A DNA stretch of 60,301 nucleotides. It comes from an uncultured Planctomycetota bacterium. GTDB taxonomy: Bacteria; Planctomycetota; UBA1135; GCA-002686595. Under the pieces are notes generated by a model. It worked only from the letters and a program-made list of their open reading frames with translations, did no database searches and was not told the DNA's origin. How positions within the stretch are numbered: the stretch's first letter is position 1; the number at the start of each line of letters is the position of its first letter. The position numbers and the translations under genes are program-made. The stretch lies in the NCBI GenBank assembly GCA_903892045.1, contig CAITGX010000275.1, positions 1-60,301 of the forward strand, written 5' to 3'. Below are positions 7,151 to 57,736 of this stretch, piece after piece.

Positions 7151-8428
7151 ATGCACAGCACCACCACGACCAGCTCCTTGAGCGCCTCGCCCCTCGCCGC
7201 ACCCCGCACCGACGACGCCCTGTGGGCGGCCGTGGCGCAGGAGACCCACCGCCAGGAGAGCCAGCTCGAGCTGATCGCCAGCGAGAACCACACCTCGCGC
7301 GAGGTGATGGCCGCCATGGGCACGGTGCTCACGAACAAGTACGCCGAGGGCTACCCCGGCAAGCGCTACTACGGCGGCTGCGAGTTCGTCGACGTGGTGG
7401 AGGACCTCGCGCGCGACCGCGCCAAGGCCCTGTTCGGCGCCGCGCACGCCAACGTGCAGGCCCACAGCGGCACGCAGGCCAACGTCGCGGCACTGATGGC
7501 GCTCGCCAAGCCCCACGACCGCGTGCTGGCGATGTCGCTCGACCACGGCGGCCACCTCTCGCACGGCCACCCCAAGAACTTCTCGGGCGTGTTCTACGAG
7601 TTCCAGAGCTACGGCGTCGAGAAGGGCAGCGAGCGCCTCGACATGGACCGCGTGCGCGAGAAGGCGCTCGAGTTCAAGCCGGCGGTGATCATGGCCGGAG
7701 CTTCGGCCTACTCGCGCAGAATCGACTTCGCAGCCTTCGGCGCGATCGCGCGCGAGGTCGGCGCGAAGCTGATCGTCGACCAGGCGCACATCGCGGGTCT
7801 CGTCGCGGGCGGCATGCACGCGAGCCCGGTGCCGCACGCCGACGTCGTGACGATGACGACGCACAAGACGCTGCGCGGTCCGCGCGGCGGCCTGATCGTG
7901 TGCAACGACGAGAACGTCGCCAAGGCGATCAACTCGGCCGTGTTCCCCGGCGACCAGGGCGGCCCGTTCATGCACGTGATCGCGGCCAAGGCCGTCGCGT
8001 TCCGCGAGGCACTCGCGCCGGACTTCAAGGCCTACGCGAAGCAGGTCTGCGCCAACGCCACGGTGCTCGCCGACACGCTCGCCGCGCGCGGCCTGCGCAT
8101 CGTCTCGGGCGGAACGGACAACCACCTGATGCTGGTCGACGTCACGCCCATGAAGCTCACGGGCAAGGACGCCGAGCACGTGCTGCACTCGGTGGACCTG
8201 ACCTGCAACAAGAACCTGATCCCCTACGACCAGAACCCGCCGATGAAGGCCTCCGGCGTGCGCCTCGGCACGGCCGCGATCACCACGCGCGGGCTGAAGG
8301 AAGCGCACATGCGCCAGCTCGGCAACTGGATCGCCGACGTGCTGGCCGAGCCGACCAACGCCCAGGTCGCGGCGCGCGTGAAGCAGGAAGTCGCGGAGCT
8401 CTGCCGCGCGTTCCCGATCTACGCGTGA
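7151..8428 (+). CDS. glyA: Serine hydroxymethyltransferase
   Basis: Full-length match to the SHMT pattern: [26 protein letters not shown]-lysine motif [12 protein letters not shown]. Confidence 0.95.
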
Positions 8429-8452
8429 GGCGCGTGGGGTGAAGCGGGGGGC

Positions 8453-8725
8453 TCAGGCGCTGCGGCGATAGCCCAAGCGCTTCAGGACCTCGAGCACCTC
8501 GCCCCACGTCGGGAACGGCTTGCGCTCGTTGCGCTTGTAGGTGTCGATCGCATTGGCGAACTCGAGCACCTCGCCGCGCGTCTCGTCCTCGTCGACGAGC
8601 TGTGCTTCCGGCGGCAGGACAGGCTCCGCCTGCGGGGCCTTCTTGGACTTGCGGACGCGCATCGTGGGTGCACGCTTCGTCCCCTTGGCGAGCGGGGACT
8701 TGCTCGGCTTGGTGGGTTCGCTCAT
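8453..8725 (-). CDS. Small hypothetical protein (90 aa)
   Basis: Clean ORF with coding-like GC3. Lys/Pro-rich N-terminus and a structured-looking C-terminus ([32 protein letters not shown]). No family recognised. Confidence 0.5.
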
Positions 8726-8789
8726 AGCGCACTGCTATCGACCACTGGCCCCGCCGGACCTCAAGCCGCAGGCGAAAAAACGCGCGGCT

Positions 8790-9851
8790 TCAGGCCAAGA
8801 CGCCGCCGCGTCGCAGGGCTGCCTCGACGCCGGCCACGTCTGGGCGCTCGATCAGCCCGACTTCGGTCACGATGCCCGTGACGAGCCGCGCGGGCGTCAC
8901 GTCGAAGGCCGGGTTGTAGATCTTGACGCCCTCGGGCGCCGTGCGCTTGCCGAAGCCGCAGGCAACTTCTTCCGCCCCGCGCTCCTCGATCGGGATCTCG
9001 GCGCCGGTCGCCATGCGCGCGTCGAACGTCGAGAGCGGGGCGCACACGTAGAACGGGATGCCGTGCTCGCGCGCGAGCACGGCCACGCCGTAGGTGCCGA
9101 TCTTGTTCGCGACGTCGCCGTTGCGGGCGATGCGGTCCGCACCGACGAGCACCGCATCGATGCGCCCCTCGAACATCACGCGCGCCGCCATGTTGTCGGT
9201 GATGAGCGTGACATCGATGCCCGACTGGTGCAGCTCCCACGCCGTCAGCCGCGCGCCCTGCAGCAGCGGGCGCGTCTCGTCGGCGAACACGCGGACCGTC
9301 TTGCCCTGGTCCTTGGCGACGTAGATGGGCGCGAGCGCCGTGCCATAGTCGACGGTCGCGAGGCCGCCGGCGTTGCAGTGCGTGAGCACCGTGCAGCCGT
9401 CCTTGAGCAGCGCGGCGCCCACGGCTCCGATCCGCCGGCAGATGGCCTTGTCTTCCTCGAAGATCGCGCGCGCCTCGGCGAACAGCCCGTCGACGATGGC
9501 CGCGCCGCTCGCGTGGTCGCGCGCGGCGCGCGCCACCATGCGCTCGAGCGCCCAGAACAGGTTGACCGCCGTCGGACGAGACTTGGCGAGGTACGCCGCC
9601 GTCTCCTTCACGCGACCGAGCGTGTCGTCGCGGTCGCGCTCGTCGAGCCGCTGCACGCCCAGCAGGAGACCGAACGCGGCAGCGACGCCGATCGCGGGCG
9701 CGCCGCGCACGGCGAGCCGGCGAATGCAGTCGAACATCTCCTCGACGGTGCGCACGTCGAGCACGACGTACTCGACCGGCAGTTGGGTCTGGTCGATCAG
9801 GCGCACGTGGCCAGGGCGGCCACCTTCCCAGAGGATCGTTGCGACGGGCAT
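8790..9851 (-). CDS. mtnA: Methylthioribose-1-phosphate isomerase (eIF-2B alpha/beta/delta family)
   Basis: 3' part of the artefactual 1253-aa ORF 8790..12551, from ATG at 9851. Motifs RGAPAIG, TVLTHCNAGGLAT, GADRIARNGDVANKIGTY. Confidence 0.88.
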   Translation of the reverse strand: MPVATILWEGGRPGHVRLIDQTQLPVEYVVLDVRTVEEMFDCIRRLAVRGAPAIGVAAAFGLLLGVQRLDERDRDDTLGRVKETAAYLAKSRPTAVNLFWALERMVARAARDHASGAAIVDGLFAEARAIFEEDKAICRRIGAVGAALLKDGCTVLTHCNAGGLATVDYGTALAPIYVAKDQGKTVRVFADETRPLLQGARLTAWELHQSGIDVTLITDNMAARVMFEGRIDAVLVGADRIARNGDVANKIGTYGVAVLAREHGIPFYVCAPLSTFDARMATGAEIPIEERGAEEVACGFGKRTAPEGVKIYNPAFDVTPARLVTGIVTEVGLIERPDVAGVEAALRRGGVLA

Positions 9852-15376: not shown

Positions 15377-16179
15377 GCGAGCGCACCGACGACCTCGAGC
15401 GCTGGAAGTCCGTGGCGGTCGAGGCCGCCCACGCGGCTGGCCGCGTGCTGATGGAGCACTTCGGGCACATCGCGCGCAGCGACGTCGGCTCGAAGTCCGC
15501 GGCGCGCGACCTCGTGACGAAGGCGGACGTGGCGAGCGAGCGCGCCGTGGTCGCGGTCCTGCGGCGCGAGTGCCCCGAGCACGCGATCGAGGCCGAGGAA
15601 GAGGTGCGGGACAAGCCGCGAGCGGAGGACGAGCTGCGCTGGTTCGTTGACCCGCTCGATGGCACCACCAACTTCGTGCACCAGCTGCCGACGTTCTCGG
15701 TGTCGATCGGCCTCTATCGCGGCGCGACGCCGCTCGTCGGAGTGGTCCACGCGCCGCGACTCGGCGAGACCTACGCGGCGCGCGCAGGCGGGGGCACGAG
15801 CGTCAACGGCGTGCCCGTGCGCGTGTCCGGCTGCGAGAGCCTGCGCGACGCGATCCTCGCCACCGGCTTCCCGTACCGGCGCGAGACGCTGCGCTGCGAC
15901 AACGTCGACAACTTCCGCCGCTTCATCCTCGAGGTGCGCGACATCCGGCGCATGGGCTCGGCGGCCCTCGACCTCGCCTGGGTCGCCGCGGGCCGGATGG
16001 ACGGATTCTGGGAGCTGCACCTCGCGCCCCACGACGTGGCGGCGGGGGCGCTGCTGGTGCGGGAATCCGGAGGCGTCGTCAGCGACGCGGACGGCGGCGA
16101 GCACTGGCTGCGGGGCGGGCACATCGTGGCCTGCGTTCCGGCCCTGCACGCCGAAATGCTCGGGAAAATCGGCCACTAG
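15373..16179 (+). CDS. suhB: Inositol monophosphatase family protein
   Basis: 3' part of ORF 12535..16179. The GTG at 15373 overlaps the dacB stop (GTGA). Motifs WFVDPLDGTTNF and GSAALDLAWVAAGRMDGFWE. Confidence 0.85.
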   Translation: MSERTDDLERWKSVAVEAAHAAGRVLMEHFGHIARSDVGSKSAARDLVTKADVASERAVVAVLRRECPEHAIEAEEEVRDKPRAEDELRWFVDPLDGTTNFVHQLPTFSVSIGLYRGATPLVGVVHAPRLGETYAARAGGGTSVNGVPVRVSGCESLRDAILATGFPYRRETLRCDNVDNFRRFILEVRDIRRMGSAALDLAWVAAGRMDGFWELHLAPHDVAAGALLVRESGGVVSDADGGEHWLRGGHIVACVPALHAEMLGKIGH

Positions 16180-16385
16180 CTGCGGCGAGAGCCCGCGTTC
16201 CGGCGGGGGACGATTCCCGCTCGCGAGACGGCCCCGAGGAAGACTCGGCCGGGGAGCGGTGGCCTTTCGGCGACTTGCGCGCGGCGCTACGATGCCCGCT
16301 TGCGGAGTTTCCTGCCCTAGCTCCGCGAAGCCCGCCGGGTTCGGTGCGCTTTGCGACTGCGGGAAGCCCCGCGCGCACCCTGCCC

Positions 16386-19300
16386 ATGCAGCGCCAAGAG
16401 GATGTCCGGCCGCAGGCCGCGGCGACGAGCGCGATCCGCGTCCGCGGAGCGCGTGTGCACAACCTGCACGGCGTCGACGTCGACATCCCGCGCAACGAGC
16501 TGGTGGCGATCACGGGCGTGTCGGGCTCGGGCAAGAGCTCGCTCGCCTTCGACACGCTGTTCCGCGAGGGACAGCGGCGCTTCCTCGAGACGCTGTCGGC
16601 GTACGCGCGCCAGTTCCTCGGGCGCATGGAGAAGCCCGACGTCGACTCGATCGAGGGCCTCGCGCCGGCGATCGCCGTCGATCAGGCGGCCGCGAGCTCG
16701 AGTCCGCGCTCGACCGTCGGCACGCTGACGGAGATCTTCGACCACCTGCGCGTGCTGTACGCGCGCGCCGGCCGGCCGCACTGCCCCAAGTGCAACGTGC
16801 CGCTGCAGTCGCTGACCCCGGAGTCGATCGTGCAGCAGGCGCTCGAGCTGTACGAGGGCAAGGCGGTCAACGTGCTCGCGCCGCTCATCCGCGACCGCAA
16901 GGGCCAGCACGAGGAGGTGCTCGAGGGACTCAAGCGCCGTGGACTGATCCGCGCGCGCGTCGATGGCACGATCGTGCGCATCGAGGAGGCGCCCAAGCTC
17001 GAGCGCTACGTGCGGCACACGATCGAGGCGGTCGTCGATCGCCTGCGCCCCGAGCGCGAGCAGCCCACGCGCCTGCGCGAGGCCGTCGAGAACGCGCTCG
17101 AGCTCTCCGGCGGTGACGTGATCTTCGCTCCGAGCGAGGAGGGACTCCCGGAGCGCGCGTGGTCCACGTCGCGCAACTGCCCTGGCTGCGGCGCCGACAC
17201 GCCGCCCCTCGAGCCGCGCCTCTTCTCGTTCAACTCTCCGCATGGCGCATGCCCGCAGTGCGAGGGACTCGGCCTGCGTCGGCAGGCGAGCGAGTCGCGC
17301 ATCGTGCGCGACGCCTCGCTCTCGATCCGCGAGGGAGCGCTCGCGGTCTCGAGCAAGTCCGGAACGTCGCTCAACTACCCGCCGGTCGACTTCGACTTCC
17401 TCGAGCAGGTCGCCGCGTCGTTCGACTTCGACCTCGACACGCCGTGGAAGGACCTGCCGCGCAGCGCGCGCCGCGTGATCCTGCACGGCGCGGGCGACGA
17501 GCGCTTCGAGGATGACTTCTCCTGGAACGGCGCGAAGTACCAGGGCTCGATCAAGTGGCAGCGGCGCTTCAAGGGCGTGATTCCGGCGCTGGAGAAGGCG
17601 GCTGCGGGCGGCAAGGCGACCGCGAGCGCGTTCTTCACGACGGCGGCCTGCGAGGCCTGCGCCGGAACGCGTCTCAAGCCGGCGGCGCTGGCCGTGCTCT
17701 TCGGCGGGGCATCGCTGCGCGAGCTGCTCAACCTCTCCATCCGCGAACTCGAGCCGCGACTCGAGAAGCTCGAGCTCTCCGCGCGCGAGGCGCGCATCGC
17801 TCGCGACCTGCTCGCGGAGGTCCGGAGGCGCACCGAGTTCCTGCGGCAGGTCGGCCTCGACTACCTGACGCTCGCGCGTGGTGCCGACACGCTCTCTGGC
17901 GGCGAGGCCCAGCGCATCCGGCTCGCGGCACAGCTCGGCAGCGCGCTGCAGGGCGTGCTGTACGTCCTCGACGAACCTTCGATCGGCCTCCACGCGCGCG
18001 ACCACGCCCAGCTGCTGCACGCGCTACAGCGCTTGCGCGACGGCGGCAACACGGTCGTGGTCGTCGAGCACGTCGAGGCCACGCTGCGCGCCGCGGACCA
18101 CATCATCGACGTCGGCCCGGGTGCGGGGCGCAACGGTGGCCACATCGTGGCGCGCGGCACGCCGCAGGACGTCGCGCGCGCGGACTCGCCGACGGGGCGC
18201 TTCCTGCGCGGCGAGCTCTCGATGCCCGCGCCCGCGCAGCGGCGCACCGGCAACGGCGAGTTCCTCGAGATCGAGGGAGCGCGCGCCTTCAACCTCAAGG
18301 GTGTCGACGCGCGCTTCCCGCTCGGCACGCTGTGCGTCGTCTCCGGCGTCAGCGGCTCGGGCAAGTCGACGCTGGTGAACCGCATCCTGCAGCCGGTGCT
18401 CGCGGCGCACCTCGAGCGCGAGGGCGACGAGCCCGGCGAGCACACGCGCGTGCGCGGCCTCGAGCGCGTGGGGGACATGGTGGCGATCGATGCCAGCCCG
18501 ATCGGTCGCACGCCGCGCAGCAACCCAGCCACGTATACGGGCGTGTTCGACCCGATCCGCGACCTGTTCGCGGCGCTGCCCGAGTCGCGCGTGCGCGGCT
18601 ACACGAAGTCGCGCTTCTCGTTCAACGTCGAGGGCGGTCGCTGCGAGGCCTGCGGCGGCGCGGGCTCCAAGCTCGTCGAGCTGCAGTTCCTCGCGCCCGT
18701 GACGGTGCCCTGCGACGAGTGCGGCGGCGAGCGCTTCCAGTCCGAGACGCTCGACGTGCGCTACAAGGAGAAGTCGATCGCCGACGTGCTCGCGCTCACG
18801 GTCGAGGAGGCGCTCGAGCTGTTCAAGGACCACCCGAAGATCGCGCGGCCGCTGCAGGCCATGGCGGACGTGGGCCTCTCGTACCTGACGCTCGGCCAGC
18901 CCTCGACGACCATCTCGGGCGGCGAGGCGCAGCGCATCAAGCTGGTCACGCAGCTGCAGAAGCGCGCCCGCGAGCACACCGTCTACCTGCTCGACGAGCC
19001 GACGACCGGGTTGCACCCGCAGGACATCGCGCGCCTCGTCGGAGCGCTGCAGCGCCTCGTCGACGCGGGTCACACCGCGATCGTGATCGAGCACAACCTC
19101 GACGTGATCCGAGCGGCGGACCACGTGCTCGATCTCGGGCCCGGCGGCGGTGACGCGGGTGGCGAGCTGGTCGCCTCGGGAACGCCGGAGCAGCTGATGC
19201 GCAACAAGCGCTCTGCGACGGGCGCCGCTCTGCGCGGCGAGCACGCGGTCGCTCGCAAGCAGCAGCTCGGCCGCGGCGAGCACGTGCCGAGCGACCGCAT

Positions 19301-22190
19301 CCGCGTCGTCGATGCAACCACGCACAACCTCGACCACGTCTCTGTCGACATGCCGCGCGACGCGCTGGTCGTGATCACGGGCCCCTCGGGCTCGGGCAAG
19401 AGCTCGCTCGCGCTCGACACGATCCACACGGAAGGCCGCCGACGCTTCGTCGAGTCGCTCTCGACCTACGCACGACAGTTCCTCGGGAACCGCGACAAGC
19501 CGCCCGTCGATCGCATCGAGGGACTCGGGCCGTCGGTGGCCGTCGAGGCGAGCACGTCGCGCGGCCATCCGCGCTCGACCGTCGCCACCACGACGGAGAT
19601 CCACGACCACCTGCGCGTCCTGTGGGCGCGCGCCGGGACTCCGCGCTGCCCGACGCACGGGCTCGAGCTCGCCAAGGTCGATCCGGCTCGCATCGCGCGC
19701 GACGTGCTGAAGCGTCACGCCGGCGGCAAGGGCTGGGTCGTCGCACCGGTGCGCGGTCCCGGCCTCGGAACGGATACGTTCGACAAGGAGCAGCTCGACA
19801 AGCTCGTCGACGCTTGGAAGGCCGCGGGCTTCGTGCGTCTGCTCGTCGACGGCTCGGAAGTCCGTCTCGACGGCAAGCTGCAAAAGCTCGGGGCCGAGGC
19901 GCGCGTCGACCTCGTGATCGACCGCCTCGGCTTCGCGCCGGACGCGCGCGCGCGCATCGCCGAGGCGGCCGAGCAGGCGGCCGCGCAAGCGCACGGCCGC
20001 GTGAGCATCGTCGTCGCCGGAGGCCCGCGACTCGAGTACTCGACGCAGGGCGCCTGCCCCGAGTGCGGCCACCGGCTCGAGCACCGCCTCGACCCGCGGC
20101 ACTTCTCGTTCAACACGCACGCGGGCGCCTGCCCCGAGTGCGACGGCCTCGGCTCTTCGAGCCGCTGCGATCCCGCGAAGCTCGTCCTGCACGAGGACCG
20201 CTCGCTGCTCGAGGACGCGCTGCATCCGAAGTTCGCGCGCTACCTCGTCAAGGGCAAGGGCTACTACGAGCACCTGTTCCTCACCGTCGCGCGCACGCAC
20301 AAGATCAAGGTCGAGCTCGCCTTCGGCAACCTGAGCAAGGCGCAGCAGGACCTGCTGCTGTTCGGCAAGGGCTCGAAGCCGCGCTACGAGGTGAAGATCG
20401 AGCGCGAGAGCATGAACGCGGAGATCTCCGAGCGCTTCACGGCCGACTGGCCGGGTCTGTGCGGACACATCGACGCCTGGCATCGCAAGACGGAAGACGC
20501 GGAGTGGGCCACGCTGCTCGAGCAGGTCATGACCACGGTCACGTGCCCGACCTGCGAAGGCGAGCGCCTGATGCCCGACGCGCGCCACGCCGTCGTCGCG
20601 GGCGTGCGCATGCCCGAAATGGCGCGCTGGTCCGTATCGCGCTCGCTCGAATGGCTGCGCAAGCTCGCGCTGCCGGCCTCGACGCGCGAGGGCGTGGAGC
20701 AGGTGGTCGGCGAGCTCGTCTCGCGCCTCTCGCTGCTCGAGCGCGTCGGTCTCGGCTACCTGACCCTCGACCGGCCGACGCACACGCTCTCGGGTGGCGA
20801 GGCGCGGCGCGTGCGGCTGTCCGCAAACCTCGGCTCGCAGCTCGTTGGCGTCTGCTACGTGCTCGACGAGCCCACCGTCGGCCTGCATCCCGCGGACGTC
20901 GAGAAGCTCACCGGCGCGCTGCTCGAGCTGCGCGCGGGAGGCAACAGCGTGCTCGTGGTCGAGCACGACGAGAGTCTGATGCGTCGCGCGGACTGGATCG
21001 TCGACATGGGCCCGGGCGCCGGTCGCCTCGGCGGCAAGGTCGTCGCCAGCGGCACGCCCGCGGAGATCGAGGCGCATGCGAGCTCGCTCACGGGCGCCGC
21101 CCTGCGTGGCGAGCTCGCCCCCGCGCGCAGCGCCGAGCGCGCGAGCGGACGCGAGAAGCGCGCGAAGATCCGGCTCGTCGGCGCGACCGGCAACAACCTG
21201 AAGAGCGTCGACTACGAAGCGCGCTTCGGCTCGATCAACGGCGTGTGCGGGCCCTCGGGTTCCGGCAAGAGCACGCTGGTGCTCGACACGCTCGTGCCCG
21301 CGCTGCGCGGCGAAGGGCCCGTGGGGCGCTGGCGCAAGCTCGAGGTCGGTATCGAGTCGCCGCGCGTCGTCGTCATCGACGCCTCGCCGATCGGGCGCAC
21401 TCCCGCGAGCACGCCCGCAACCTACACGGGGCTGCTCGAGCCGATCCGCGAGCTCTTCTCGCGCACGCCCGACGCGCGCATGAAGGGCTACGGACCGAGC
21501 CACTTCTCGTTCAACTCGCCCAAGGGGCGCTGCCCGGCCTGCGAGGGCAAGGGAGCGACGCTGGTCGAGATGCAGTTCCTCGCGGACCTGTGGCTCTCGT
21601 GCGACGAGTGCGGCGGACGGCGCTTCGCTCCGGAAGTGCTCGAGGTGCGCTATCGCGGCAAGAACGTCGCGGACGTGCTCGACCTCTCCGTCGACGAAGC
21701 GCTCGAGTTCCTCGACGCGCACCCGCGCGCCGTGTCGATCCTGCGCACGCTCTCCGACGTCGGCCTGGGCTACATGTCGCTCGGCCAGAGCTCTACGACG
21801 CTCTCCGGCGGCGAGGCCCAGCGAGTCAAGCTCGCCGGCGAGCTGTTCCCCGGCGAGTCCACGGGCCCCGCGGCGATCATCCTCGACGAGCCCTCGACCG
21901 GCCTGCACGCCTCCGACGTCGCGCGCCTCGCGCGCGTGCTCGGCCGACTCGCGGACGAAGGCCACGCCGTGATCCTGATCGAGCATCACACGGGACTGCT
22001 CGCGGCCTGCGACGAGCTCGTCGAGCTCGGTCCCGCGGGCGGCGAGGCCGGCGGACGCGTCATCGCGCGCGGCACGCCGGAGGAACTGTCCCGCGATCCG
22101 CGCTCGGTCACGGGGCCCTTCCTCGCCACCGACTCCGCTTCCCGCAACTCGCCCCCCGCGCGCCCCGGGCGCGTCGAGGTCCTGCGATGA
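16386..22190 (+). CDS. uvrA: Tandemly duplicated UvrA (two complete excinuclease ABC subunit A units in one 1934-aa polypeptide)
   Basis: ORF 16275..22190, with the ATG at 16386 just before IRVRGARVHNL. Unit 1 runs to about 19250 and unit 2 from about 19290. Four Walker A motifs (GVSGSGKSS, GVSGSGKST, GPSGSGKSS, GPSGSGKST). Four ABC signatures (LSGGEAQR x2, ISGGEAQR, LSGGEARR). Four Walker B motifs (LDEPS/T.GLH). UvrA zinc modules (CPKC..CPGC, CPQCEGLG, CEAC in unit 1; CPTH..CPEC, CPECDGLG, CPTCEG, CPACEGKG in unit 2). Confidence 0.9.
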   Translation: MQRQEDVRPQAAATSAIRVRGARVHNLHGVDVDIPRNELVAITGVSGSGKSSLAFDTLFREGQRRFLETLSAYARQFLGRMEKPDVDSIEGLAPAIAVDQAAASSSPRSTVGTLTEIFDHLRVLYARAGRPHCPKCNVPLQSLTPESIVQQALELYEGKAVNVLAPLIRDRKGQHEEVLEGLKRRGLIRARVDGTIVRIEEAPKLERYVRHTIEAVVDRLRPEREQPTRLREAVENALELSGGDVIFAPSEEGLPERAWSTSRNCPGCGADTPPLEPRLFSFNSPHGACPQCEGLGLRRQASESRIVRDASLSIREGALAVSSKSGTSLNYPPVDFDFLEQVAASFDFDLDTPWKDLPRSARRVILHGAGDERFEDDFSWNGAKYQGSIKWQRRFKGVIPALEKAAAGGKATASAFFTTAACEACAGTRLKPAALAVLFGGASLRELLNLSIRELEPRLEKLELSAREARIARDLLAEVRRRTEFLRQVGLDYLTLARGADTLSGGEAQRIRLAAQLGSALQGVLYVLDEPSIGLHARDHAQLLHALQRLRDGGNTVVVVEHVEATLRAADHIIDVGPGAGRNGGHIVARGTPQDVARADSPTGRFLRGELSMPAPAQRRTGNGEFLEIEGARAFNLKGVDARFPLGTLCVVSGVSGSGKSTLVNRILQPVLAAHLEREGDEPGEHTRVRGLERVGDMVAIDASPIGRTPRSNPATYTGVFDPIRDLFAALPESRVRGYTKSRFSFNVEGGRCEACGGAGSKLVELQFLAPVTVPCDECGGERFQSETLDVRYKEKSIADVLALTVEEALELFKDHPKIARPLQAMADVGLSYLTLGQPSTTISGGEAQRIKLVTQLQKRAREHTVYLLDEPTTGLHPQDIARLVGALQRLVDAGHTAIVIEHNLDVIRAADHVLDLGPGGGDAGGELVASGTPEQLMRNKRSATGAALRGEHAVARKQQLGRGEHVPSDRIRVVDATTHNLDHVSVDMPRDALVVITGPSGSGKSSLALDTIHTEGRRRFVESLSTYARQFLGNRDKPPVDRIEGLGPSVAVEASTSRGHPRSTVATTTEIHDHLRVLWARAGTPRCPTHGLELAKVDPARIARDVLKRHAGGKGWVVAPVRGPGLGTDTFDKEQLDKLVDAWKAAGFVRLLVDGSEVRLDGKLQKLGAEARVDLVIDRLGFAPDARARIAEAAEQAAAQAHGRVSIVVAGGPRLEYSTQGACPECGHRLEHRLDPRHFSFNTHAGACPECDGLGSSSRCDPAKLVLHEDRSLLEDALHPKFARYLVKGKGYYEHLFLTVARTHKIKVELAFGNLSKAQQDLLLFGKGSKPRYEVKIERESMNAEISERFTADWPGLCGHIDAWHRKTEDAEWATLLEQVMTTVTCPTCEGERLMPDARHAVVAGVRMPEMARWSVSRSLEWLRKLALPASTREGVEQVVGELVSRLSLLERVGLGYLTLDRPTHTLSGGEARRVRLSANLGSQLVGVCYVLDEPTVGLHPADVEKLTGALLELRAGGNSVLVVEHDESLMRRADWIVDMGPGAGRLGGKVVASGTPAEIEAHASSLTGAALRGELAPARSAERASGREKRAKIRLVGATGNNLKSVDYEARFGSINGVCGPSGSGKSTLVLDTLVPALRGEGPVGRWRKLEVGIESPRVVVIDASPIGRTPASTPATYTGLLEPIRELFSRTPDARMKGYGPSHFSFNSPKGRCPACEGKGATLVEMQFLADLWLSCDECGGRRFAPEVLEVRYRGKNVADVLDLSVDEALEFLDAHPRAVSILRTLSDVGLGYMSLGQSSTTLSGGEAQRVKLAGELFPGESTGPAAIILDEPSTGLHASDVARLARVLGRLADEGHAVILIEHHTGLLAACDELVELGPAGGEAGGRVIARGTPEELSRDPRSVTGPFLATDSASRNSPPARPGRVEVLR

Positions 22191-39152: not shown

Positions 39153-39283
39153 CTGGGGCGGGTTGGGGCGGCGCCCCTTCTGGCCCTCGCGCTCGCCCGA
39201 AAGGCGCGTCGATTGCCTGCGATTGCGGCGCGCCGGTAGTCTAGGACGCCGATCGGGGTGGTGGAACAGCGCCCCGCACCCCG

Positions 39284-40867
39284 ATGAGCGCCCGCATCGC
39301 CCGCCATTGCCCGCAGTGCGGCTCGCCCCTCGCGCGGGCCGTGGTGGAGGGCCGCGAGCGCAGCCGCTGCCCCGACTGCAGCTTCGTCCTGTACGAGAAC
39401 CCCGCCTGCGCCGTGGCGGCGCTGGTGGTCGACGCGGCCGGCCGGGTGCTGCTCGTGCGCCGCGCCCTGGACCCCTGCAAGGGCGACTGGGCGCTCCCGG
39501 CGGGCTTTCAGGAGATCGACGAGCAACCGGCGCAGACCGCCGTGCGCGAGGTCTTGGAAGAGGCGGGGATCGAGATCCGGCCCCAGTCCGTGTTCGACCT
39601 GTTCCTCGTGGCCCAGCCGGGCCGCCGGGCGGTGACCTTGGCGGTCTACCTGTGCGCGCACGCGAGCGGGGAGCCCGTGCCGGGCGACGACGCCCTCGAG
39701 GCCCGCTTCTTCGACCTCGACGCGCTGCCCCCGAACATCGCCTTCGACAACCGCGAGCGGATCCTCTCGCATCTGCGCGCCGATCCTCGTTACCTTGCCT
39801 GCACCACCATGAGCACCCAATCGACCGGCGGCACGCGCTCGATCTCCTACAAGGACTCGGGCGTCGACATCGAGAAGAAGTACGGCGCCGTCGAGCGCGC
39901 CACGGACGCGATCCGCAAGACCTTCACCAAGGGCGTGGTGGGGGACATCGGCAACTTCGGCGGCCTGTTCGACCTCGGCCGCGCCGGCGTCGGACAGGGC
40001 ATGCTCGTGGCGAGCGCCGACGGCGTCGGCACCAAGCTCGAAGTCGCCAAGCGCGCCAAGGTCTACCACACCGTCGGGCGCGACCTCGTCAACCACTGCA
40101 TCAACGACATCCTCGTGCAGGGTGCCCGTCCCCTGTTCTTCATGGACTACGTGGCGGTGGGCAAGATGGAGCCCGAGGTCGTGGCCGAGCTGATCCGCGG
40201 CTGCGCGGAGGGTTGCAGCGAGAATGCCGTCGCGCTGCTCGGCGGCGAGACCGCGGAGATGCCGGGCCTGTACGCAGTGGGCGACTTCGACCTCGCCGGC
40301 TTCATCGTCGGCATCGTCGATCCCACGAAGCTGCTCGATGGCAGCCGCGTGCGCCCCGGACAGGTCGTGCTCGGCCTCGCTTCGGCGGGCCTGCACACCA
40401 ACGGCTACTCGCTCGCGCGCAAGATCCTGTTCGACCACAAGGGGCACGCCGTCGATGCCCGTCCCGCCGAGCTCGGCGGCCAGTCGGTGGGGGAAGCGCT
40501 GCTCGCCGAGCACCGCTCGTACCTGAAGCTCCTGTGGCCGCTGCTCGAGCAGGGCAAGATCGCCGCCATGGCCCACATCACGGGCGGCGGACTCGTCGAC
40601 AACCTGCCGCGCGTGCTCGGCTCGAGCGACGCGGTCCTCGACCGCACCTCGTGGCCGGTCCCGGCGCTGTTCCGCTACCTGTGCGAGGCCGGCAACGTCG
40701 ACGCGGAAGAGCGCTACCAGGTGCTCAACATGGGCATCGGCATGGCGCTGATCGTCGACGCCGCCGACGTGGCCGCCGTGGGGAACCACTTCCGCGCGGT
40801 CGGCGAGCCGTTCTTCACGATCGGCCGCATCGAGGCGGGCAGCGGCATCGTGCGCTGGTCGCGCTGA
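39284..40867 (+). CDS. purM: Nudix hydrolase (zinc-ribbon N-terminus) fused in frame to phosphoribosylformylglycinamidine cyclo-ligase (AIR synthase)
   Basis: Residues 1-175: CPQC..CPDC zinc ribbon and a perfect Nudix box GFQEIDEQPAQTAVREVLEEAGI. Residues 176-527: PurM (YKDSGVDI, GGLFDL, ASADGVGTK, DYVA, LLGGETAEMP, TNGYSL, HITGGG). No stop codon between them. An internal ATG at 39809 could give a separate PurM. Confidence 0.85.
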   Translation: MSARIARHCPQCGSPLARAVVEGRERSRCPDCSFVLYENPACAVAALVVDAAGRVLLVRRALDPCKGDWALPAGFQEIDEQPAQTAVREVLEEAGIEIRPQSVFDLFLVAQPGRRAVTLAVYLCAHASGEPVPGDDALEARFFDLDALPPNIAFDNRERILSHLRADPRYLACTTMSTQSTGGTRSISYKDSGVDIEKKYGAVERATDAIRKTFTKGVVGDIGNFGGLFDLGRAGVGQGMLVASADGVGTKLEVAKRAKVYHTVGRDLVNHCINDILVQGARPLFFMDYVAVGKMEPEVVAELIRGCAEGCSENAVALLGGETAEMPGLYAVGDFDLAGFIVGIVDPTKLLDGSRVRPGQVVLGLASAGLHTNGYSLARKILFDHKGHAVDARPAELGGQSVGEALLAEHRSYLKLLWPLLEQGKIAAMAHITGGGLVDNLPRVLGSSDAVLDRTSWPVPALFRYLCEAGNVDAEERYQVLNMGIGMALIVDAADVAAVGNHFRAVGEPFFTIGRIEAGSGIVRWSR

Positions 40868-53240: not shown

Positions 53241-54875
53241 CTAGCGCGCGATCGAGGCGCTCTGGGACGGATAGCAGCAGAACACGTCGAGCCGGCCACC
53301 GTCGACGCGCCGCGCGCGCAGTCGATCGCCGACTTCAAGGGCCGCGGCGAGCCGCGGCTCGATGTCCGCCTCGAAGCGATCGCCGCGCGCGTCGCTGAAG
53401 GTCGGGCGCGGCCCGTCGAGCGACGCGATCTCGTACAGCGTGGAAGGCTGGCCACCGTCGTTGCGACACCAGCGCTGCGCCTCGACGAGTCGCGCCAGCG
53501 CGCGCTCCATCGGCGGGATCGTCTTCTCGTAGGCGTCGAGCAGCGCGACGTCCTGATTCTCCTGCGACCAAGCGCAGAACTCGCGCAGGGCGCGCAGCAT
53601 GCGCCGCACGTCTTCCGCGCTCTTCAGCATGCGCCGCTCCGGCAGCCAGACCGAGGCGAACAGCAGGAGCTCGCGGCCGGTGAGGTTCTCGAACACGCCG
53701 TAGTCCGCGCCGAACTCGCCGAAGGCCCGCACCACGGAAGCTTCCACCGACTCGGCCTCGCCGCGCGTGCGACCGAGTTCCCACAGGAACTCCTCGATCA
53801 TCGCGCCCACGACGCCGGGGAAGTCGGGCGCCGGCGCGCCGTCGATGGCGTCGGGATCGTAGGTCTCGCTCTCGAGCTCGAGATCGCGCTCGAGCTCGCG
53901 GAACAAGGTCTCGAGGTCCTTGCCGGCGCGTCGCCCCGCGTCGAAGGCCTCGATCGCGGCGCGTGCGTCCTGAACACGGTCGTTGCGCTCTTCGCTCTCG
54001 GTCGCGTCGCTCTCCGTCGGGGCCGAGAGCTCGACCCACGCGTCGAGCAGCACGCGCCGCGCGACGTCGAGGTCCATGCGCGTATCGAACGCGAGCGACT
54101 CGAGCACGCTCGCGAGCACGTCGTCGACGCCGTGCACGACGAGCGACGCGTCGAACGGCGAGCGCCGCAAGTCCGCGAAGATCTGCTCGATGCGCACCGA
54201 GTCGACACCGCCCGCGAGCAGCGCCGCTCGCGCAGCGCCGACCGCGTCGCTGCGCAAGGGATCGATGCGACGCCAGAACATCCCCTCGAGCTCCGCCTGC
54301 GTGAGACGCAGCACGCCGCGCCGCGCCTGGCGCAGGCTCTCGAAGTCCGCGAGCAGCGCGCGCAGGAGCTTGCTCGAGCGGAACACGCCGGCCGCGGGCG
54401 AGACGCGATACAGCGACTCGCCGATCGCGAAGAGGCGGCCGACGAGCACGTCGTCCGCGCTCAACGCACGCGAGCCCTCGGGCTCGCTGAGCGGATACTC
54501 GCCCATGGCCGCGAGGTCGCGCACCCACACGCCTTCGCCCTCGGCCACGCCCGTGACCTGGAACACCGAGCAACGCGAGGCGAGCAGCGCCCGCAGCGCA
54601 TCCTCGGAGAGTTCCTCCACATCGATGTCCTCGAGGCGGTGCAGCACCCACTCGACCGGCGCGCCTCCGAGCACGTTGCTCGGGCGCTCGAGCAGGAACC
54701 ACTCGCGGTGGCGCCGCAGCGCGCGCGGCGTCTCCTCGTCCTTCGGCGGCGGCTCTCCCTGCAGGAAGTACTCGCGTCGGCTCGCCTCGAACTCGGCGGC
54801 GAGACCGGGCTGCGCGAGCACGGCCCGCTCGAGGAGAGCGAGGGCCTTTTCGATTTCGTCAGGTTCGAGACGCAT
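53241..54875 (-). CDS. Hypothetical cytoplasmic protein (544 aa)
   Basis: 3' part of ORF 53241..55070 from ATG at 54875. Acidic, helical-looking, coding-like GC3. No family recognised. Confidence 0.6.
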   Translation of the reverse strand: MRLEPDEIEKALALLERAVLAQPGLAAEFEASRREYFLQGEPPPKDEETPRALRRHREWFLLERPSNVLGGAPVEWVLHRLEDIDVEELSEDALRALLASRCSVFQVTGVAEGEGVWVRDLAAMGEYPLSEPEGSRALSADDVLVGRLFAIGESLYRVSPAAGVFRSSKLLRALLADFESLRQARRGVLRLTQAELEGMFWRRIDPLRSDAVGAARAALLAGGVDSVRIEQIFADLRRSPFDASLVVHGVDDVLASVLESLAFDTRMDLDVARRVLLDAWVELSAPTESDATESEERNDRVQDARAAIEAFDAGRRAGKDLETLFRELERDLELESETYDPDAIDGAPAPDFPGVVGAMIEEFLWELGRTRGEAESVEASVVRAFGEFGADYGVFENLTGRELLLFASVWLPERRMLKSAEDVRRMLRALREFCAWSQENQDVALLDAYEKTIPPMERALARLVEAQRWCRNDGGQPSTLYEIASLDGPRPTFSDARGDRFEADIEPRLAAALEVGDRLRARRVDGGRLDVFCCYPSQSASIAR

Positions 54876-54917: not shown

Positions 54918-54946
54918 TTGACGGCTTCCGAGCGTGCGTTTAGCCT
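54918..54946 (+). promoter_or_regulatory. Sigma-70-like promoter candidate for the riboswitch transcript
   Basis: TTGACG (54918-54923), 17-nt spacer, TAGCCT (54941-54946). Placed about 20-30 nt upstream of the riboswitch P1 stem. Confidence 0.4.
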
Positions 54947-54964
54947 CACACGCTGAAAATTCGT

Positions 54965-55195
54965 TCTCGCGAGCGTGGAGCAGGGGAAGCTGGTGTGATT
55001 CCAGCACGGTCCCGCCACTGTGAGCCGCATGCCATCGAGCCCGTGTGCCGGTGCGCGAGCGCTTCCCCACCGGGAGTCGCTCGCGTCCGACAGGCCACTG
55101 GGACCCGCGTGACTTCCTTCAGGGAGCTCGCGCCGCGTCCCGGGAAGGTCCGCTCGAGGGCGCCAACGGCGAGTCAGGAGACCCACCACGCATCG
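54965..55195 (+). promoter_or_regulatory. Cobalamin (B12) riboswitch
   Basis: All three conserved blocks are present in order. GGGGAAGCTGGTGTGATTCCAGCACGGTCCCGCCACTGTGA (54983-55024). GCCACTGG...CCCGGGAAGGTC (55094-55150). B12 box AGTCAGGAGACCCACC (55172-55187). A P1 candidate pairs GCGTGG (54973-54978) with CCACGC (55186-55191). Confidence 0.85.
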
Positions 55196-55323
55196 CCGCA
55201 CCTCTCGGACCTCGAGGCTGGGTCCGGTGCCTGTTGCGGAGCGCCTTCGTGCGCGCTCCCGCCGGCCCCGGTCTCGCGTTCCGACCGCAGCCGCACCACC
55301 CCATTCGACGTGCGACGGCGGTG

Positions 55324-56658
55324 ATGTCGACGGTCGATCGACGGGTCGCTCCCATGTCCCTACGCCTCCTCGTTTCTGCCCTGCTCCTCTCCACCGCTCC
55401 GATGCTCTCGGCGCGCGGAGACACCACCCTGCCCGGCTTCACGCTGGCGAGCAGCGTGAATCCAGCTCCCTCCAGCGTTGCGTGCTCGCTGCCCGATGGT
55501 GGCTACGTCACGTTCGACGGCCAGCTCGTCCAGCGCTGGAACGGCGACGGCACGCTCGACACGACGCTCGCCTCGTTCGCGAGCTTCGTGTTCCCGAGCT
55601 TCATCCGCCTCACGCCCGACGAGGACGCCGTGGTGATCGGCGACAGCGGCGGCTTCTCGCCCAACCCTGCCGGCGACCTGCGCATCGTGTGGCTCGACGG
55701 CTCCGGCTCGGGCCTCGTCGCTGCGCTGGCCTACAACTTCGACGGCGAGTTCCTGCCCGATGGCTCGCTGCTCGTCTCCGCCGCGCCCAACGGCTTTGGG
55801 GTCGGCACGGACCTCTACCGCGTGAACATCTCCTCGGGAGCGCTGCAGTTCCTCGGGCACCTCGACGGTCCCTCCGGCCCGGTCGCGGTCGCGCGCAACG
55901 GCGACATCTTCTACGGCACCCAGCAGGACTCCTCGCTGCCCACCACGCCCCAGAGCATCCTGCGCTGGAGCGCCGGACTCGTCGCCTCGGGCACGCAGCT
56001 CTCGGCGAGCAACGCGGTCGTCTACGCGACCGGATTCGCGGGCACGAGCGCACTCGAGTTCGAGCCCGGACGCGAGCGCCTGTTCCTTTCGGAGAACAAC
56101 TTCACCACGGGCAGCTACCGCATTCTGCGCATCCGCGCGGGCGGCGGTTCGAGCCAGCAGCTGCTCGTGGCGGACAACTGGATCAGCACGCTGCGCTTCG
56201 AGCGCCAGGGAGATGGCACGTTCGACGCGTACCAGCCCGATGACGGCCTGAGCATCGCCTATACGACCACGGACTTCTTCTCCTTCGATGACCTCGTGCG
56301 CTTCTCGCCGGCGCGACCGGAGCTCGCGCTGTCGGGCACGGGACTCGTCGGCCCGGGTCCGGTCGTGTTCTCGCTCAGCGGCGGCGTGCCCAACGGCAGC
56401 GCGTTGCTGACCTATTGCCCACAGTCGGCGATGCTGCCTCAGGAGGCGAGCTACGCGCTGCCCGTGTTCCTGCTGCGCACGCCGTTCGCACTGCCGGCCA
56501 CCGTGCGCATGCCGTTCCTCGTTCCGACCGACGCCACGGGCGCCGCAAGCCTCACGCTGTGGAACCCGGGCGACCTGCAGGGCGAGTTCGGCTGGCAGTT
56601 CCTCGTCGGGCGGCCCAACGGCGCGCTCATCGGCGCGAGCGACGCCGAGCAGTTCTAG
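55324..56658 (+). CDS. Secreted protein of unknown function (beta-propeller-like repeats plus C-terminal Ig-like region), riboswitch-controlled
   Basis: 3' part of ORF 55045..56658. The upstream part of that ORF is the riboswitch. ATG at 55324 (or 55354) precedes the signal peptide MSLRLLVSALLLSTAPMLSARG. Gly/Asp/Ser-rich beta-type sequence with recurring DG/NGD turns. Confidence 0.65.
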   Translation: MSTVDRRVAPMSLRLLVSALLLSTAPMLSARGDTTLPGFTLASSVNPAPSSVACSLPDGGYVTFDGQLVQRWNGDGTLDTTLASFASFVFPSFIRLTPDEDAVVIGDSGGFSPNPAGDLRIVWLDGSGSGLVAALAYNFDGEFLPDGSLLVSAAPNGFGVGTDLYRVNISSGALQFLGHLDGPSGPVAVARNGDIFYGTQQDSSLPTTPQSILRWSAGLVASGTQLSASNAVVYATGFAGTSALEFEPGRERLFLSENNFTTGSYRILRIRAGGGSSQQLLVADNWISTLRFERQGDGTFDAYQPDDGLSIAYTTTDFFSFDDLVRFSPARPELALSGTGLVGPGPVVFSLSGGVPNGSALLTYCPQSAMLPQEASYALPVFLLRTPFALPATVRMPFLVPTDATGAASLTLWNPGDLQGEFGWQFLVGRPNGALIGASDAEQF

Positions 56659-56678: not shown

Positions 56679-56712
56679 GCGGGCCGTGCGACCGATGCGT
56701 CGCGCGGCCCGC
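56679..56712. terminator. GC-rich hairpin between convergent genes (possible bidirectional terminator)
   Basis: GCGGGCCG (56679-56686) pairs with CGGCCCGC (56705-56712). There is an inner GCGAC/GTCGC stem. No U-tract. Confidence 0.4.
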
Positions 56713-56718
56713 GCTCGT

Positions 56719-57009
56719 TCACTCGACCGAGCGCAGGGCGTGCATCCAGGGCAGCGCCGCACGCAAGCGCGGCTCGAGCCCCTGCGACAGCGTGCTCGCC
56801 TGCTGCGAGCAGCTCGCGCACGCGCCCCGCATGCGAACGTGCACGGTGCCGTCGTCGTCGACGCGCAAGAGCTCGATCCGCCCGCCATCGAGCTCGACCA
56901 GCGGCGCGAGCTCGGCGAGCACCGCCTGCACGGCAGAGACGCGCGTGGGATCGCCTTCGACGGAGTGCTCCGTCCCGAGCGCGCGCGCCAACCACTCGCG
57001 CACTCCCAT
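56719..57009 (-). CDS. NifU-like (Nfu C-terminal domain) Fe-S cluster protein
   Basis: 3' part of ORF 56719..57246 from ATG at 57009. LVELDGGRIELLRVDDDGTVHVRMRGACASC with the CxxC motif typical of the NifU C-terminal domain. Confidence 0.75.
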   Translation of the reverse strand: MGVREWLARALGTEHSVEGDPTRVSAVQAVLAELAPLVELDGGRIELLRVDDDGTVHVRMRGACASCSQQASTLSQGLEPRLRAALPWMHALRSVE

Positions 57010-57623
57010 CAACGTCGCTCCGCCAGCCACTCGAGCGGCAGCTCGAGTCGCCATCCGGCGCCGTCGCCGAAGAGCTCCGCGCCGCGCGTCGCGCACTCGC
57101 ACGCCAAGAACTCCGCTTGCGCGCGCGTGAGGTCGGCGCGCGAGAGCCGGACGGACCAGCGCTCGCCCTCGCGCGCGAGCGAGAGCGAGAAGGCCCCGTC
57201 GAGCGTCTCGCAGGACTCCCAGACGAGCGCCGCCAGATCGAGGCACAGCGCCGCGGTGCGCGGGCCGCCCTCGGCCAGCGTCATCGTCGGGACGCTCTCG
57301 GGCAGGGCGAGCTGCTTGCGCTGGCGCCGCAGGGCCTCCGCGAGCAGCTTCAGGGTCGCAGCGAGTCCGTCGCGCTCCTCGCGGGCGAGCAGCAAGTCCG
57401 TGCCCAACGAGCGCGCGAGCAATCCGAGGAGCCAGCCCTGCTCCTCCGCGTCCCGCGATGCATGCGCGAGGCTCGACCCAGCCGTCGCCAGCAGACCGTC
57501 ATCAGGCTCGGCGAGCACCGAGCGCAGCACCACGAGCAGCTGCGTCGTGTTGTTGATGCGATGCACCAGCGCCGGGATCAGCGCCTCCGCGAGCCGCGGG
57601 TTGCGCGAGCGGGGCGGGGTCAC
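57009..57623 (-). CDS. Hypothetical protein with a histidine-kinase H-box-like segment
   Basis: 3' part of ORF 57009..58361 from GTG at 57623. Its stop shares one nt with the NifU-like start (TGATG). LIPALVHRINNTTQLLVVL resembles the DHp H-box (AHDFNNLL type). No N/G1/G2 ATP-binding boxes seen. Confidence 0.5.
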   Translation of the reverse strand: MTPPRSRNPRLAEALIPALVHRINNTTQLLVVLRSVLAEPDDGLLATAGSSLAHASRDAEEQGWLLGLLARSLGTDLLLAREERDGLAATLKLLAEALRRQRKQLALPESVPTMTLAEGGPRTAALCLDLAALVWESCETLDGAFSLSLAREGERWSVRLSRADLTRAQAEFLACECATRGAELFGDGAGWRLELPLEWLAERR

Positions 57624-57652
57624 GCGCGCCTCGCGCCCGAGGGGAAGGGGGG

Positions 57653-57736
57653 TGCCGAGAAAGGGAATCGAACCCTTACTCCCGTGAGGGAAACGGATTT
57701 TGAATCCGTCGCGTCTGCCAGTTCCGCCATCCCGGC
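57653..57736 (-). tRNA. tRNA-Leu (anticodon CAA)
   Basis: The reverse complement folds as a cloverleaf. Acceptor GCCGGGA/TCTCGGC (with one G-U pair). D-arm GCG..CGC. Anticodon stem ACGGA/TCCGT with loop TTCAAAA. Long variable arm (CCC-TCAC-GGG). T-arm AAGGG-TTCGATT-CCCTT. Discriminator A. CCA is not fully encoded. Confidence 0.92.

Follow-up and report, generated by a model that had tools for sequence, protein, structure and literature searches.

A cobalamin riboswitch and an exported propeller-Ig protein as one inherited unit: a candidate B12 acquisition factor in Planctomycetota

The stretch of DNA considered here (contig CAITGX010000275.1 of assembly GCA_903892045.1; 60,301 nucleotides, hereafter the window) stems from an uncultured Planctomycetota bacterium and contains, on its forward strand between positions 54918 and 56658, a compact unit in which a cobalamin (vitamin B12) riboswitch precedes a single gene for an exported orphan protein. 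From 5' to 3' the unit comprises a promoter, the aptamer, two leader hairpins and the gene, whose product is predicted to combine a beta-propeller with an immunoglobulin-like (Ig-like) domain. Comparison of homologous loci strongly supports the view that the cobalamin riboswitch is dedicated to this gene, which nearly always forms a monocistronic unit. It also makes the protein a strong candidate for a factor of B12 (or cobalt) acquisition that acts outside the cytoplasm under a B12 riboswitch and that represents a new family in this role.

The aptamer occupies positions 54959-55204 (+) and carries a long P6 extension. Its match to the Rfam covariance model RF00174 spans the whole model (1-189) and reaches 48.0 bits (E = 6e-9) against a gathering threshold of 31.5; it is the sole riboswitch found within the window. 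The B12 box AGTCAGGAGACCCACC lies at 55172-55187, the L5 loop reads UCCCG, and the columns of the aptamer core are invariant in an alignment of eight orthologous leaders. The element is a genuine, class-I-like cobalamin riboswitch. Upstream of it a promoter (54918-54946, +) is recognisable from sequence and conservation, with the -35 element TTGACG at 54918-54923, a spacer of 17 nucleotides (nt) and the -10 element TAGCCT at 54941-54946. TTGAC and TAnnnT are unchanged in all eight aligned leaders. A generic sigma-70 scan did not call the promoter at this position, because the -10 element matches TATAAT at three of six positions only. An initial annotation, made from the letters of the window, had already proposed both a complete riboswitch core and a promoter of this spacing; the covariance match and the aligned leaders bear out the two proposals, and the promoter coordinates were right.

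The leader is followed by one open reading frame (ORF) that ends at 56658 and has a G+C content at third codon positions (GC3) of 0.87, in a genome of 71% GC. Two in-frame ATG codons could open it. The true start is probably ATG 55354 and not ATG 55324, since homologues of 425-447 amino acids (aa) begin at a Met equivalent to the former (MSLRLL...), the latter is missing from several orthologues, and the 30 nt that separate the two are conserved as an RNA hairpin, not as codons. With this start, the coding sequence at 55354-56658 (+; stop codon included) gives a product of 434 aa.

The protein opens with a Sec-type signal peptide (MSLRLLVSALLLSTAPMLSARG; 55354-55419, +), read from the sequence and the family alignment and cut before DTTLPGF, with residues 23-434 as the predicted mature protein. 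The peptide ends in LSARG directly ahead of DTT, without the Cys of a lipobox, and the same holds family-wide. The mature N-terminal motif D-T-x-x-P-G-F/Y is kept across the family. The predicted exported product is a non-lipidated protein of about 43 kDa, and its composition is distinctive: the mature window protein is devoid of lysine and has an isoelectric point (pI) of 4.2 at a net charge of about -20, with 1 His and with 2 Cys that may form a disulfide. Acidity is a property of the family as a whole (median pI 4.1-4.6, net charge -15 to -26; median 3-5 His). Residues that are invariant throughout the family are Gly, Pro, Ser, Glu, Gln and Arg, which form no obvious catalytic or metal-binding set.

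In order to describe the fold, we rely on an AlphaFold2 model built on an alignment of 21 sequences, which for the full-length protein has a predicted local distance difference test score (pLDDT) of 86 and a predicted template modelling score (pTM) of 0.80; the signal-peptide segment appears in it as a low-confidence N-terminal helix. The model predicts a six-bladed beta-propeller for residues 35-330 in the 444-aa numbering (55426-56313, +), in which 24 strands are arranged as six four-stranded blades. The remainder (56314-56655, +) is predicted to be an Ig-like beta-sandwich that ends in an invariant Phe; modelled alone, the C-terminal 119 residues form a nine-strand sandwich with a pLDDT of 91.8. 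Foldseek comparison of the full-length model with the PDB returned generic propellers only. The best matches, with target-normalised template modelling (TM) scores of 0.65-0.69, are six-bladed enzymes, namely the lactonase RPA3624 (8DJF, 7RIS), strictosidine synthase and an SMP-30-like protein, 6S5U and 2P4O also being listed; these best targets share 10-15% identity with the window protein at a root-mean-square deviation of 4-6 A. The C-terminal domain likewise retrieved generic Ig-like folds only (best E 1.5e-3, TM below 0.5) and no significant neighbour. Searches by sequence gave no Pfam match even at E <= 10, no NCBIfam match, and no meaningful match among PDB sequences, either by phmmer with the single sequence or by the family profile. 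The description that the initial annotation had given of the gene and its product holds in most respects: the lone ORF is real, the signal peptide is recognised, the repetitive Gly/Asp-rich beta-type sequence corresponds to the predicted propeller and the Ig-like tail to the modelled sandwich, whereas the start, placed there at 55324, has to be moved.

Relatives of this protein are numerous and confined to one phylum. A word-indexed search returned 21 clusters, all of them unannotated and all from metagenome-assembled genomes (MAGs) of Planctomycetes/Planctomycetota. A full profile search gave 670 representatives, one per cluster at 50% identity, of which 261 have E <= 1e-30. Almost all representatives are about 430 aa long and carry a signal peptide, and those distant members that bear a source name are again Planctomycetota MAGs. 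There was no cultured organism among the 15 species-representative genomes matched, and literature searches brought up no prior description of the propeller-Ig family or of a Planctomycetota B12 regulon.

The association of this family with the riboswitch was surveyed in homologue-flanking DNA that was obtained by four independent routes, each set being scanned with Rfam. RF00174 lies directly upstream on the same strand in 8 of 8 loci from contig look-ups, which cover close and medium relatives. It is equally found upstream of the homologue in all 11 loci from GTDB species representatives, in 12 of 12 from JGI metagenome contigs, and in each of five distant members (about 30-35% identity), which had been picked for their long contigs. 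Collapsed by protein identity, the non-redundant loci number 29 at 95%, 26 at 90%, 17 at 70% and 9 at 50%, and the riboswitch is present at 29 of the 29 that have upstream DNA; the recurrent association for which the initial annotation had proposed to survey homologues is thus found. Many loci share a common order, in which a GyrI-like gene, a 544-aa orphan and the unit are followed by NifU, tRNA-Leu and DapB. In the loci L004, L024, L027 and L028 the neighbours are unrelated and the riboswitch and the gene are still paired, which indicates that the two form one inherited module. Membership of the family in a B12 regulon is, on these grounds, as firm as comparative genomics can make it.

The genomic contexts also speak to the extent of the unit. 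Of 13 gene-called contexts, 11 show a convergent or distant gene next to the unit, which is thus monocistronic in these. An exception is L026, in which a sulfatase gene lies 174 nt 3' of the propeller gene. In L024 (6001-9050, +) a gene for a CorA Mg/Co transporter (TIGR00383, 275 bits) lies 13 nt past the propeller gene, and a gene for a SixA-like histidine phosphatase comes next; the three genes behind one riboswitch are probably an operon that links the family to cobalt. Neither a TonB-dependent receptor nor btuB occurs in the 13 gene-called contexts, and no cob or cbi genes were seen near any locus examined. L027 holds a second RF00174 element (8587-8795, 77 bits) within a segment at 7394-8795 (-), where it drives a gene convergent with the propeller gene. 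The product is a 329-aa exported orphan whose match to the LIC_13355 lipoprotein family stays below threshold (56 bits against a cutoff of 120) and which has no Pfam and no PDB match. This suggests that the lineage of L027 possesses a set of B12-controlled extracytoplasmic proteins.

Between aptamer and gene the leader contains two conserved hairpins that are built alike: a stem of 5 bp carries a loop of 7 nt, which starts with CG and usually ends with GA. Hairpin A (CACC...GGACCU-CGAGGCU-GGGUCC...GGUG; 55199-55229, +) was defined by a consensus fold with covarying pairs and takes the position of P13. It starts 1-7 nt 3' of the aptamer in most loci and lies about 125 nt 5' of the start codon. 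Its 3' arm keeps GGG while the pairing partner varies, and this GGG could kiss the CCC of the invariant L5 loop. Hairpin B (GUCGA-CGGUCGA-UCGAC; 55326-55342, +), with its CG-NNN-GA loop, sits 11 nt before the start codon in the window and 3-28 nt before it across loci. All five of its pairs covary, 97% of the cells are paired, and none of 500 shuffles matches the score. The full stem is exchanged for GGUCU/AGACC or GCUCU/AGAGC with the loop retained, where it should be borne in mind that the three stem-swapped examples came from a search that demanded pairing. The exact motif TCGACGNNNGATCGA has one copy in the window and, among 43 fetched loci, a single copy in each of 30, always at hairpin B; the fetched DNA of about 400 kb contains it at no other place. 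Hairpin B is therefore particular to this family of leaders, and it falls under no Rfam family. In one clade its loop holds the Shine-Dalgarno-like sequence AAGGA 8 nt before the AUG, which points to control at the level of translation initiation.

The leader of btuB in E. coli offers a useful comparison, as its cobalamin riboswitch acts on translation initiation with a secondary loss of transcript. Both leaders place a P13-type hairpin after the aptamer, both have structured RNA around the ribosome-binding region, and both are devoid of a canonical intrinsic terminator. The more consistent detection of leader RNA than of the ORF in the window may be likened to the transcript loss of btuB. Unlike in E. 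coli, the P13-like hairpin of the window is remote from the start codon, beside which a second, family-specific CG-NNN-GA hairpin is found instead.

Transcription of the unit can be followed in natural communities. At least 20 metagenomes of lakes, fresh water and rivers, which stem from 14 studies, contain this sequence, and its host is a widespread freshwater planktonic planctomycete. In eight river and freshwater metatranscriptomes, contigs of at least 99% identity cover the leader from about 54970-55000 on, that is, from shortly 3' of the promoter. Several of them run unbroken from the aptamer into the ORF (for instance 54993-55391 and 54979-55399), and pieces of the ORF were assembled in four metatranscriptome runs, reaching up to 56474. 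The surrounding 5 kb were almost never assembled as RNA, and the leader is the most consistently assembled part. These contigs show that the unit is transcribed in situ, with read-through into the ORF. Six leader contigs end within 55357-55399, having covered 5-45 nt of the ORF. The ends of contigs carry little weight, and these are taken as a hint of transcripts that, where translation is blocked, are terminated or degraded just past the start codon; early termination, decay and a stable fragment of the leader are all conceivable origins. Position 55086, in the variable P6 extension, is T in the window and C in seven of eight RNA runs from different studies; C looks like a common variant of the population rather than an error.

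With rare exceptions, cobalamin riboswitches are OFF switches, and their targets serve B12 uptake, the supply of B12 or cobalt, or B12-independent isozymes. Against this background we infer that the unit works as a self-contained B12-starvation module. A constitutive-looking promoter drives the riboswitch leader together with the single downstream gene. Enough intracellular cobalamin would lead the aptamer to fold and the gene to be shut off, be it via kissing between L5 and the P13-like hairpin, via the leader-specific hairpin beside the start codon or via both, and the repressed transcripts would stop or decay soon after the start codon. Under scarcity of B12 the propeller-Ig protein would be made and exported. 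Outside the cytoplasm it would bind corrinoids, probably on a face of the propeller, and hand them to an uptake system encoded elsewhere in the genome. It would in this way play a role like that of BtuG and BtuK, or of a periplasmic or extracellular B12 scavenger, and would do so as a member of an unrelated family restricted to Planctomycetota. This assignment of corrinoid capture builds on membership in the regulon, on export and on an acidic scaffold that is not enzyme-like. The chances that the protein does serve the extracytoplasmic acquisition of corrinoids, most simply as a binder that delivers them to a transporter encoded elsewhere, appear to us evenly balanced.

The nearest functional precedent is BtuG, the surface lipoprotein by which Bacteroidota capture B12 (BtuG2, PDB 8BMZ), and it was by analogy to BtuG that the initial annotation had proposed a corrinoid-capture protein. 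The likeness holds for general features. Both are exported and strongly negative propellers, and both are encoded behind a cobalamin riboswitch, so that both would be produced under scarcity of B12. BtuG binds its ligand on a face of the propeller. The differences are nonetheless considerable: BtuG has seven blades and the window protein, according to the model, six; BtuG is a lipoprotein whereas the window protein has no lipobox; BtuG is always encoded beside btuB, whose barrel it caps, whereas the window family has no btuB neighbour in the 13 gene-called contexts; and the window protein has an additional C-terminal Ig-like domain and comes from a different phylum. The family profile found no BtuG match among PDB sequences at E <= 10, and the Foldseek comparison that the initial annotation had suggested brought up no such fold, as neither BtuG nor BtuK, BtuH or BtuJ is among the best 50 matches. 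We therefore reject a BtuG relative or BtuG-like fold, on account of blade number, generic fold matches, lack of lipobox and btuB, and lack of a sequence match; what stands of the analogy is an exported, acidic, riboswitch-controlled propeller.

Other known proteins share single traits with the family. BtuK1 of Bacteroides (PDB 9S6C) joins a PKD domain to a seven-bladed propeller, and like the window protein it is exported, combines an Ig-fold domain with a propeller and is under a B12 riboswitch. The order of the domains is the opposite, the Ig-like domain being C-terminal in the window protein, and BtuK1 is a lipoprotein within a btu locus with one blade more than the six of the window protein. 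No homology to BtuK1 was detected by Pfam, by the PDB profile search or among the best 50 Foldseek matches. The C-terminal domain was also considered as a B12 module of the BtuH/BtuJ type, which was rejected since it has no match to PF14717 (DUF4465) at E <= 10 and its fold is generically Ig-like. Propellers of the SMP-30, gluconolactonase and strictosidine-synthase type have the same number of blades as the window protein and are its best overall fold match. Neither the protein nor its family has a Pfam, NCBIfam or PDB sequence match to them, and the residues invariant in the family show no recognisable set of catalytic metal ligands. Those enzymes, in turn, have neither a link to a riboswitch nor an Ig-like tail, while the window protein has both. 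By analogy, two traits may be read in favour of a corrinoid role, namely the acidity of the family, which recalls the negative B12-binding face of BtuG, and the joint occurrence of propeller and Ig-like folds, as in the B12 binders BtuG and BtuK.

Several points weigh against corrinoid capture and against parts of the proposed mechanism. The function is assigned through guilt by association. In no context is there an adjacent transporter, be it btuB, a TonB-dependent receptor or an ABC (ATP-binding cassette) transporter, unlike for every characterised extracellular B12 binder. The matches of the predicted fold are generic and led by six-bladed enzymes of the lactonase and strictosidine-synthase type. 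The acidity and the lack of lysine may reflect the high GC content of the genome (71%) and export, and corA at 13 nt from the gene in L024 points to cobalt, not to a corrinoid. With regard to the mechanism, the complementarity between L5 and the hairpin loop amounts to 2-5 nt, is weak and is inconsistent across loci, for which reason we do not maintain L5-loop kissing as a claim. The leader contains no intrinsic terminator, the sole terminator-like call lying inside the ORF at chance level. A long-range anti-P1 helix between 55190-55198 and 55318-55326 is favourable in the closest clade only (z -1.8 to -2.8); its absence outside that clade led us to reject it as a general mechanism. A more far-reaching version of corrinoid capture, which we regard as doubtful, would see in the family new and structurally distinct soluble binders of high corrinoid affinity, a "corrinophore", secreted or periplasmic, that works with no TonB-dependent transporter dedicated to it next door; the leader would carry a previously undescribed CG-NNN-GA expression-platform hairpin specific to the regulon.

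The main rival explanation is the supply of cobalt. An acidic exported propeller could capture Co2+ or another cation for B12 synthesis, either in the periplasm or beyond the cell, and feed an inner-membrane channel such as CorA, with a riboswitch that represses when B12 suffices, as for CbiMNQO, CbtA and NikK-type systems. B12 riboswitches commonly control cobalt importers, and the CorA equivalog of L024 lies on the same strand and behind the same riboswitch as the propeller gene. The strongly negative charge, with many conserved Asp and Glu, would suit a cation. In a survey of 2009, none of the known Ni/Co transporters turned up in three Planctomycetes genomes, and novel systems, including CorA, were proposed (PMC2667541); this reported absence from early Planctomycetes genomes counts on the side of cobalt as well. 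If cobalt binding were true, the family would fill this long-noted gap in the known cobalt uptake systems of Planctomycetota. The linkage to corA is found, however, at only 1 of 29 non-redundant loci, and no cob or cbi gene accompanies any of them. A two-domain protein of 43 kDa is also large for a metal chaperone, and the protein has no His- or Cys-rich motif. On balance, a role in cobalt supply seems unlikely to us.

Two further alternatives leave aside the capture of a ligand for uptake. Quite unlikely, in our estimate, is an extracytoplasmic enzyme, a hydrolase- or lactonase-like propeller that is needed when B12 is scarce and that might remodel corrinoids, release them from precursors or carrier complexes, or replace a B12-dependent process. 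B12-independent isozymes, metE and nrd among them, are known to be controlled by riboswitches, and the six-bladed enzymes at the head of the Foldseek matches would accord with such a function; yet their low identity is the same as for any pair of propellers, Pfam gives no match to six-bladed enzyme families or to any enzyme family even at E <= 10, and the invariant positions compose no recognisable metal or catalytic set. We moreover know of no extracytoplasmic B12-dependent housekeeping reaction that would need a backup. The protein might alternatively respond to B12 starvation without touching B12, either as an adhesin for contact with B12 producers or as an envelope-remodelling factor. Propellers joined to Ig-like domains are frequent among adhesins and surface proteins, no transporter gene accompanies the solitary propeller gene, and the organism is a widespread planktonic planctomycete of fresh water. 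This alternative is very unlikely, given that no precedent is known for such a riboswitch target, that no anchor is seen (a lipobox, a transmembrane segment and a recognised sorting signal are all absent), and that a strict one-to-one linkage with the riboswitch over about 70% sequence divergence is hard to square with it.

B12 is a keystone micronutrient in aquatic and soil communities, where most bacteria must scavenge it, and its extracellular capture is understood only in gut Bacteroidota, through BtuG, BtuH, BtuJ and BtuK. What is new here is a large unannotated family of a single phylum, with about 670 representatives at 50% identity, that is transcribed in natural freshwater communities and whose sole consistent genomic partner is a cobalamin riboswitch. 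If these proteins bind corrinoids, they would represent an independent evolutionary solution to B12 capture, provide a handle on B12 uptake in Planctomycetota and serve as a new metatranscriptomic marker of B12 limitation. Should they be corrinophores, they would show how Planctomycetota, with their unusual envelope and uptake biology, acquire B12.

The surroundings of the unit in the window agree with its isolation as the initial annotation had described it, with neighbours on the opposite strand, a closing hairpin and, within the unit, no genes of B12 transport, synthesis or B12-independent isozymes. When the main ORFs of the 60-kb window were scanned with Pfam, no btuB, TonB-dependent receptor, ABC transporter, cob, metE or nrd gene came up. 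On the downstream side a NifU-like gene (56719-57246, -) is convergent with the unit; a tRNA-Leu (CAA) gene (57651-57736, -) is noted downstream of it, in a synteny that is kept in most loci. The two convergent genes are separated by a GC-rich hairpin (56679-56712) with a perfect 14-bp stem, which folds with -37.6 kcal/mol (z = -4.5; 0 of 200 shuffles fold as well) and is terminator-like with a weak U tract. On the upstream side a divergent orphan gene of 544 aa (53241-54875, -) has no signal peptide and no Pfam or NCBIfam match, and its synteny is conserved in most loci. It was considered as a member of the unit and rejected: L025 and L026 have it at a distance from the unit, L024, L027 and L028 lack it, and we therefore take it to belong to an independent orphan family.

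Some observations on the family and on the remaining window may be added. A sub-family of about 600 aa (P0113, P0133, P0139, P0148, P0156, P0164, P0165 and P0167) has its propeller interrupted midway by an insert of about 160 aa, and the similarity of this insert to the GH115_C or Golvesin_C beta-sandwich domains is below threshold and uninformative. The Logan contigs of the divergent members P0093 and P0125 are both 16,733 bp long, so that the two may be paralogues on one contig. Elsewhere in the window, an ORF of 2179 aa (15651-22190, +) contains duplicated UvrA modules, with the UvrA interaction and DNA-binding domains present twice each and several ABC ATPase P-loops, and looks like a fused or duplicated UvrA-like protein. 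A further ORF (39245-40867, +) fuses an N-terminal Zn-ribbon and NUDIX hydrolase to AIRS and AIRS_C domains, which are related to AIR synthase.

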